DNA of 64,000 nt from Escherichia phage NHEP11, in sequence record PQ511149.1; one strand, given 5' to 3'. Under the pieces are notes generated by a model, which saw nothing but the letters and a program-made list of their open reading frames with translations, did no database searches and was not told the origin of the DNA. The position numbers were made by a program, and so were the translations under genes. This document shows, in pieces, positions 12,365-13,644 of the stretch; the stretch's first letter is position 1, and each line of letters opens with the position of its first letter.

Positions 12365-13180
12365 TTAACAATTTACAGACCAAGTCCATTTGGACGAATC
12401 TAAAGGAAAGTTTTGAATCGTCCACCATGGCTGCATATTGGTTGGTCCTGGGGTTCGCCAGGTATACGGATTCGACGGAGTGCCAATTTGATTAGGCCAT
12501 GCACCTGGACTTGTTGCACCAGATTCTTTAAGCAAATCCGCCAATCGTTTTAAAAGGTCTTCACGATCTGAATCTGAATTATGCTCTGGTGGAACCAAAC
12601 GAGATTCAATATCATCCCACGTGTGTACACGTTGTGCAGTACGAGGAATGGCATCACGTTCACCACGAGCCAACCAATAAATCGGTACATTAAGAATTTC
12701 TGCTGCATGGTCACAGTGATGAGCTAAATCGTCAACGTAACAAATCACGTTATATTTTGTTTTAGCTAGTTCGAATAATTGTTCCTTTGAAGAATCATGT
12801 CCACACATCATTACTTCAGAAAAGGCGCCTGGGAACAAAGCATTCAAATTAAATTGTCTATTCAATCGAGCATCAATTGAATCACCTAGTGCCGTCACGG
12901 CTACAAAATTATAGTCTTCTTTTAGTTTATTGATAACTCGAAGAGCATCCGAATAAGGCGCTAAGTAACGAATAAAATCAGAGCGATTATATTTTTCTAT
13001 TAATTGTTTACCGAGGTTATCGTCGGTATTGAATAGTTCACCAGGAGAAATAAATTTTTCGTCCTGAATCATTTTTAAAATATGTTCTAATGGAAGATTA
13101 TATTTTTGGGCAAAATATGGAAGTCCAGATTGCCAGCTTAAACATACACCATCAATATCAGTCAAAATAGTAGGCTTCAT
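12365..13180 (-). CDS. HAD-superfamily hydrolase-like protein (5'(3')-deoxyribonucleotidase-like N-terminal domain; 30.2-like)
   Basis: 271 aa; N-terminal motif ILTDIDGV resembles HAD motif I; Trp-rich C-terminal tail. Confidence 0.55.
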   Translation of the reverse strand: MKPTILTDIDGVCLSWQSGLPYFAQKYNLPLEHILKMIQDEKFISPGELFNTDDNLGKQLIEKYNRSDFIRYLAPYSDALRVINKLKEDYNFVAVTALGDSIDARLNRQFNLNALFPGAFSEVMMCGHDSSKEQLFELAKTKYNVICYVDDLAHHCDHAAEILNVPIYWLARGERDAIPRTAQRVHTWDDIESRLVPPEHNSDSDREDLLKRLADLLKESGATSPGAWPNQIGTPSNPYTWRTPGPTNMQPWWTIQNFPLDSSKWTWSVNC

Positions 13181-13644
13181 AAAGAGTCTCTTAATAGGTT
13201 TAACACATCAATAAATTCAGCTTCGGTTAGTATTGTATCATCTTTTGTTAGACCACTAGCCATGCTGTGCTTCAAAATTTTTCCTTTAGAGGCTTGTAAG
13301 GCATCACGAAACCCCTTGTTTTGGATCGCTGCTTCAAAATATGCATTTGTGTATAATTCTTTCCACGCTGGGGAGTATCTTGAAAACGGAACTCCAAGCC
13401 AGAAGAGGGTCCCACGGTCCTGAGCTCTAGCATAAGACCTTCCAGCTTGTTGGGCGGCAAGCCCGGATAACCCAAATATACGTTTTTGTTGTTCAACGTT
13501 TTTCACCTTACATCCTTGGAGAAATCCTTCAAGACCTCCGAATTGAATACCATCCATAACAAAAGGCCATTGAGCAAAGTTACTTAATGCGCATGACGGC
13601 CATTTGAAATTGCTTCTTATTTCTAATTCACACATCTTTAACAC
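13177..13644 (-). CDS. NADAR/YbiA-like (DUF1768) protein
   Basis: 155 aa; SNFKWP...ALSNFAQWPFVMDGIQFGGLEGFLQ aligns by eye with E. coli YbiA FSNFAAWPIKVDG...SEHYFQ. Confidence 0.55.
   Translation of the reverse strand: MLKMCELEIRSNFKWPSCALSNFAQWPFVMDGIQFGGLEGFLQGCKVKNVEQQKRIFGLSGLAAQQAGRSYARAQDRGTLFWLGVPFSRYSPAWKELYTNAYFEAAIQNKGFRDALQASKGKILKHSMASGLTKDDTILTEAEFIDVLNLLRDSL

Follow-up and report, generated by a model that had tools for sequence, protein, structure and literature searches.

An adfN ortholog with a predicted NADAR fold in Escherichia phage NHEP11

The minus-strand gene at positions 13177 to 13635 of the window, by which we mean the whole 64,000-nucleotide stretch of DNA analyzed here, is an ortholog of adfN (T4 gene 30.3) and very probably encodes a stand-alone N-glycosidase of NADAR fold that acts against DarT1. 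The finding is correct and already known from the 2024 to 2025 literature, and it is not novel in kind: bioinformatic studies of 2012 and 2022 had each predicted the AdfN family, in vitro activity was reported in 2024, and the protein was recognized as the anti-DarTG1 factor of T4 in 2025. T4 gp30.3 was renamed AdfN in that year (Johannesman et al. 2025, PMC11825919), and it is a DNA ADP-ribosylglycohydrolase of the NADAR superfamily that T4 needs for growth on DarTG1 hosts (PMC11125620, PMC11825919, HIDEN-SEQ preprint).

The source of the window is a Tequatrovirus. In the 2.4 kb that we searched, identity was 99.6% with Escherichia phage NHEP10 and 94 to 96% with many other Tequatroviruses. 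The interval from 12365 to 13644 holds two minus-strand open reading frames (ORFs) in the same orientation, and both were located where a first-pass annotation had placed them, one of 155 aa read from a GTG (13177..13644) and one of 271 aa (12365..13180). T4 gene order is kept around adfN: the ligase gene 30, which anchors the synteny of the 30.x block, is accompanied by the small genes 30.1 and 30.4 to 30.7, of which 30.1 is the downstream neighbor within the co-oriented block (Table 1). A scan of positions 10300 to 17000 for promoters and terminators gave no signal, with 25 promoter-like sites found where 20.6±3.9 were expected.

Table 1. Features of the window discussed in the text
Feature	Position	Strand	Basis
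alt, packaged ADP-ribosyltransferase, divergent allele	8265..10352	-	PF03496, E = 6e-28; 41% identity
Gene 30, ATP-dependent DNA ligase	10596..12089	-	ORF; annotation of T4 and of matching phage records
Gene 30.1 (DUF3045)	12086..12355	-	PF11243, E = 1e-26; T4 gene order
Gene 30.2, 271 aa	12365..13180	-	HAD motifs and fold; start ATG overlaps adfN stop
adfN (T4 gene 30.3), ortholog, 152 aa	13177..13635	-	97% identity to T4 gp30.3; PF08010
adfN codon H123	13267..13269	-	
adfN codon K43	13507..13509	-	
adfN codon E36	13528..13530	-	
adfN codons S18-N19-F20	13576..13584	-	
30.3', +1-frame ORF inside adfN	13272..13496	-	88% identity to T4 30.3'; frame translations
Gene 30.4, 71 aa	13628..13843	-	phrog_2042, E = 3e-35; T4 gene order
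ModA-like ADP-ribosyltransferase, last 30 codons	63909..63998	-	Frame translates to FMLPIGTTLRVDSIIQDGRYTIWNLSIVGY and stop; remainder beyond window end

Family, fold, and allele of gp30.3

Profile searches place gp30.3 in its phage family without ambiguity. The protein matched PF08010 (Phage_30_3) with an E value of 1e-69 and a score of 233 bits, where the cut-off is 36, over positions 1 to 138 of the 138-position profile, and judged by this full-length match the ORF lies far beyond chance. A search with the same protein for PF08719, the NADAR/DUF1768 profile, returned no match at E ≤ 1; the reason is that Pfam gives the phage clade a model of its own, PF08010. Of the two findings that the first-pass annotation would have taken as refuting, the lack of a NADAR profile match holds for this protein, and the lack of the catalytic acidic residue does not. 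PF08719 is matched by 24 of 65 family members, the best at E = 1.5e-7. Since gp30.3 lacks any PF08719 score of its own, NADAR membership at the sequence level rests on this bridging by the family together with the fold. Direct membership of TIGR02464 was rejected (E = 0.15; 12.3 bits, 61 bits under the cut-off).

Structural modeling, which had also been suggested at first pass, bore out the NADAR assignment. An AlphaFold2 (AF2) model built from 65 homologs was confident (pLDDT 93.7, pTM 0.89), and its credible neighbors in the PDB were all NADARs: a Foldseek search returned Escherichia coli YbiA (2b3w; E = 4e-5, TM 0.67), followed by a Phytophthora NADAR with ADP-ribose bound (8bau) and the DarG1-type NADAR of Geobacter lovleyi (8bat). 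These three alone had probabilities of at least 0.98, and every other PDB match was at or below 0.08. A single-sequence search of PDB sequences returned one spurious match (E = 0.27), and a profile search was needed. With the family profile, LSNF...EGFLQslK was aligned to FSNF...EHYFQAQK of YbiA (E = 0.007), the E-x3-Q-x2-K segment falling on YbiA SEHYFQAQKF. Fold neighbors, this SNF...E...K alignment, and the bridging to PF08719 are three independent lines that place gp30.3 in the NADAR superfamily.

The signature from which the NADAR assignment had originally been drawn, SNF...F..DG..F...E.F.Q, is present as LSNFAQWPFVMDGIQFGGLEGFLQGCK, with the correction that the spacing between SNF and the following F is four residues rather than three. 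The catalytic Glu for which a check had been recommended is present as E36, and it is invariant in the 65 homologs, as are S18-N19-F20, Q40, K43, and H123, at identities down to 35%. H123 lies within the last strand of the model (residues 120 to 123). The third catalytic position, where phage NADARs of the gp30.3 type carry His, is occupied by Glu in YbiA-type and by Asp in DarG1/BC4488-type NADARs (PMC11125620, PMC11543638).

The gene can be read from an ATG at 13635, which gives 152 aa, or from an in-frame GTG three codons upstream (13644), which gives 155 aa. T4 gene 30.3 starts at the ATG equivalent to window position 13635. The GTG is probably not the real start of adfN. Gene 30.4, which lies upstream, has a stop that overlaps the ATG by 8 nt (ATGTGTGA), as in T4. 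At the other end, the adfN stop and the gene 30.2 start share the 4 nt ATGA, also found in T4.

The predicted protein aligned without gaps to T4 gp30.3 over 152 of 152 residues at 97% identity. Its likeness to T4 AdfN extends to E36, K43, and H123, to the C-terminal helix, and to the locus, which is flanked by 30.4 and 30.2 and shows the same overlaps of start and stop codons. The two differ by five substitutions (S2C, R11K, R51K, V120I, and I125M), all of them conservative and none suggestive of a functional difference; positions 2, 11, 51, 120, and 125 lie outside every invariant column of the 65-homolog alignment. The allele is full length and without a frameshift, and AF2 modeled its C-terminal helix (residues 138 to 151) with high confidence. 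RB69 shares the gene and the locus, but its gp30.3 is a natural loss-of-function allele that lacks the last 15 residues, whereas the allele described here is full length and keeps helix 138 to 151.

Beyond the T-even phages, E. coli YbiA is the best structural neighbor, with SNF...E...Q.K aligned, yet it is only 17% identical to gp30.3, carries Glu as its third catalytic residue, and belongs to PF08719, to which gp30.3 has no match. A comparative study describes YbiA as an N-glycosidase that acts on riboflavin intermediates (PMC9503650). The NADAR antitoxins of the DarG1/BC4488 type (8bat and the E. coli C7 NADAR) share with gp30.3 the fold and the catalytic pair of Glu and Lys, as well as hydrolysis of guanine-linked ADP-ribose (ADPr), the phage protein assayed being T4 AdfN. 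Unlike gp30.3, to which they are ~16% identical, they have Asp rather than His at the third catalytic position. The phage gene is furthermore an orphan with no adjoining DarT, and T4 AdfN is no antitoxin in uninfected cells.

Two further observations concern the gene and its relatives. T4 annotation describes 30.3', a frame within gene 30.3, as "internal translation in a different reading frame." Here the T4 ATG of 30.3' is replaced by ACG, which leaves a TTG as the sole remaining start; of 11 close relatives checked, 10 keep the frame open over 76 codons. These readings of the frame cast doubt on 30.3' as a conserved protein. Separately, PF08010 proteins at ~40% identity were found in viral contigs of jumbo-phage size (248 to 381 kb; L019, L020, L029, L045, L051, L064, L073, and L078), where T4-type 30.x neighbors are absent.

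AdfN activity and alternative roles

The first-pass annotation had raised the possibility that the phage NADAR counters DarT-type DNA ADP-ribosylation, and experiments on the T4 protein, which is 97% identical, have shown such a role (PMC11825919; HIDEN-SEQ Data S6). In vitro, T4 gp30.3 cleaned guanosine-ADPr DNA and did not clean thymidine-ADPr DNA (Toxins 2024, PMC11125620), and purified AdfN de-ADP-ribosylated DarT1-modified DNA in dot blots (PMC11825919). Recombination mapping with DarTG1-resistant T2 or T4 and DarTG1-sensitive RB69 narrowed the search to the 3' end of 30.3, where a frameshift in RB69 deletes the last 15 residues (PMC11825919). Deletion of adfN from T4 abolished counter-defense against DarTG1, as established by deletion and complementation, and E36A, K43A, and an RB69-like truncation each impaired it (PMC11825919). 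In a T4 transposon screen on K-12 without DarTG1, insertions were tolerated at 27 of the 28 sites in 30.3, which makes the gene dispensable there (HIDEN-SEQ preprint), while under DarTG1 the 30.3 insertions were lost (log2FC -7.25, adjusted p 0; HIDEN-SEQ Data S6).

By analogy with T4, host DarT1 would ADP-ribosylate guanines of the phage DNA and so block its replication. AdfN made during infection would then hydrolyze the guanine-ADP-ribose bond and release ADP-ribose, with E36 and K43 predicted to hold ribose and phosphate and H123 likely taking the position of the Glu of YbiA-type or the Asp of DarG1-type enzymes. Removal of guanine-ADPr would allow the phage to replicate in DarTG1 hosts. 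From its close match to the T4 sequence, we infer that the allele at 13177..13635 behaves like T4 adfN. Given 97% identity, a full-length allele, and an intact C-terminal helix, the product is predicted to be a functional AdfN and the phage, therefore, DarTG1 resistant.

T4 AdfN did not neutralize DarT1 in uninfected cells and barely rescued T5 and Bas25 (PMC11825919, PMC11125620). Its weakness outside T-even infection implies that the mechanism has a T-even-specific component, and its discoverers suspect a need for an additional T-even factor (PMC11825919). The same poor antitoxin performance could be taken to mean that DNA de-ADP-ribosylation is secondary, and that the enzyme mainly degrades soluble molecules derived from ADP-ribose (immune signals, for instance, or side products of RNA repair) or, like YbiA, intermediates of the riboflavin pathway. 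A soluble-ADPr role has been proposed for phage NADARs on contextual grounds (PMC9503650), and there is a weak match (E = 0.15) to TIGR02464, the model for the riboflavin-intermediate N-glycosidase. We consider a main role of this kind very unlikely, given that the TIGR02464 match, at 12.3 bits, falls 61 bits below its cut-off, that activity on ADP-ribosylated DNA has been seen directly in vitro, and that the only phenotype in the genome-wide screen appeared under DarTG1. AdfN may nevertheless have additional substrates, among them soluble ADPr derivatives, RNA-linked ADPr, and riboflavin intermediates.

As had been claimed at first pass, the window encodes Alt, with an ADPrib_exo_Tox domain (E = 6e-28); it is 41% identical to T4 Alt over its full length. 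The further expectation that modA or modB would lie at the window end was also borne out: a ModA-like gene has its final 30 codons there. This fragment is too short and too divergent to match T4 ModA or ModB directly, and no such match was found. It was identified through the near-identical phage NHEP10, which encodes an "RNA polymerase ADP-ribosylase" that is 33% identical to T4 ModA and whose C-terminal part is matched by residues 1 to 27 of the fragment. The ADP-ribosyltransferases (ARTs) are thus very divergent from those of T4 (Alt at 41%, the ModA-like protein at 33% in NHEP10), compared with 94 to 97% for the 30.x region against other Tequatroviruses or T4. Such divergence beside a nearly unchanged 30.x region suggests that the ARTs have evolved rapidly or that their alleles have been replaced.

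Alt lies 3 kb from adfN in the same orientation, and the ModA-like gene stands at the window end, an arrangement that fits the first-pass proposal of a NADAR tuning the phage's own ADP-ribosylation program. In such a role, the enzyme would tune or reverse the Alt/ModA/ModB program by taking ADP-ribose or RNA-ADPr off host proteins. We found no support for this role beyond proximity to those genes, and it seems most improbable. Alt and Mod modify arginine on proteins, and a target in protein arginine argues against it. The identities to T4 (41% for Alt, 33% for the ModA-like protein, 97% for AdfN) mean that there is no co-variation of ARTs and AdfN. A comparative study did find T4-like NADARs to be expressed early alongside ARTs (PMC9503650), but the NADARs tested, T4 gp30.3 included, act on guanine-N-linked ADPr (PMC11125620). 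Furthermore, T4 can do without 30.3 on K-12 that lacks DarTG1 (27 of 28 sites), and loss of the gene shows only under DarTG1, where T4 alt is itself neutral (log2FC -0.01; HIDEN-SEQ).

Neighboring genes 30.2 and 30.4

The 271-aa ORF downstream of adfN had been noted for a HAD motif I, DIDGV, and the motif is real: D8 and D10 are invariant in 56 homologs, as is K132 of motif III, while T96 (motif II) and D150-D151 (motif IV) are found in at least 90% of them. Residues 1 to 195 form a C1-capped hydrolase domain of the HAD superfamily, a Rossmannoid core with a helical cap, after which come a helix (203 to 221) and a disordered tail rich in Trp and Pro. By its motifs and fold, gp30.2 is a DxD-type HAD-superfamily hydrolase and most likely a phosphatase, as proteins with HAD domains of the DxD type usually are. 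With the C1-cap HAD phosphatases, including cdN/mdN (2jao, 1q92) and 3bwv, it shares the core, the helical cap, and the four motifs. No curated HAD profile scored above threshold against gp30.2 (HAD_2, 15.4 bits versus 23.8; TIGR01428, 12.7 versus 125.4). Target-normalized TM scores were best for deoxyribonucleotidase-like chains (0.61 to 0.69), and PF06941 (NT5C) was matched weakly by 8 of the 56 family members. The label "5'(3')-deoxyribonucleotidase-like" is thus supported by fold and motif as far as HAD is concerned, but the specific name is one of several equally good matches. A literature search on gp30.2 found nothing.

Overall, gp30.2 is 70% identical to its T4 counterpart, nearly identical over residues 1 to 195 and diverged in the tail. 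The tail itself (residues ~196 to 271; 12365..12590) was modeled with low confidence, is unrelated in sequence to that of T4, and is absent from many homologs, which are only ~200 aa long.

Gene 30.2 is translationally coupled to adfN and is dispensable for the anti-DarTG1 activity of T4. The coupling invites a reading in which the two form a two-enzyme pathway, with the HAD protein processing the ADP-ribose or nucleotide released by AdfN or supplying the T-even factor. The 4-nt ATGA overlap here and in T4 fits such a pathway, as do the phosphatase activity typical of DxD HAD domains, with D8 and D10 invariant, and the position of 30.2, which adjoins adfN in every Tequatrovirus- or RB69-like locus that reaches past adfN (13 of 14) and lies within 2 kb of it in seven further T4-like loci. 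We nonetheless regard it as highly improbable. No 30.2 homolog was found within 4 kb in 60 of 80 viral AdfN-family loci; the 20 that have one are all T4-like, and the 30.6-30.1 block is kept in the closest relatives only, as plain synteny predicts. T4 insertions in 30.2 were also neutral under DarTG1 (71 sites, log2FC -0.12, p 0.61; HIDEN-SEQ). Because 30.2 is rare near the AdfN family and its insertions are neutral, inherited synteny is the best reading of the pairing. A functional partnership of gp30.2 with AdfN was rejected as unsupported by co-occurrence across the 80 loci and by the transposon data.

Upstream of adfN, the 8-nt overlap between the 30.4 stop and the adfN start implies translational coupling. 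A Pfam search with gp30.4 gave no match. Under DarTG1, T4 insertions in 30.4 were ~3.5-fold depleted (log2FC -1.79, adjusted p 0.014; HIDEN-SEQ). Polarity that reduces adfN expression is the simplest account of this depletion and more likely than a cofactor role. It is unlikely that the T-even factor needed by AdfN is encoded in the coupled block, although gp30.4 would be the best candidate; gp30.2 is a poorer one, since insertions in 30.2 are neutral. Gene 30.4 lies upstream of adfN in Tequatrovirus- and RB69-like phages only, and among the viral loci 30.1, 30.4, 30.5, and 30.6 co-occurred with AdfN in the closest relatives only, so their co-occurrence pattern is silent on function.

Annotation and phage choice

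In the closest of the records searched (e.g., NHEP10, SF, and PHB12), the genes of the 2.4-kb stretch are labeled "hypothetical protein," the ligase excepted. The gene at 13177..13635 can be named adfN. An intact adfN allele predicts DarTG1 resistance, which is relevant to the choice of therapeutic phages.
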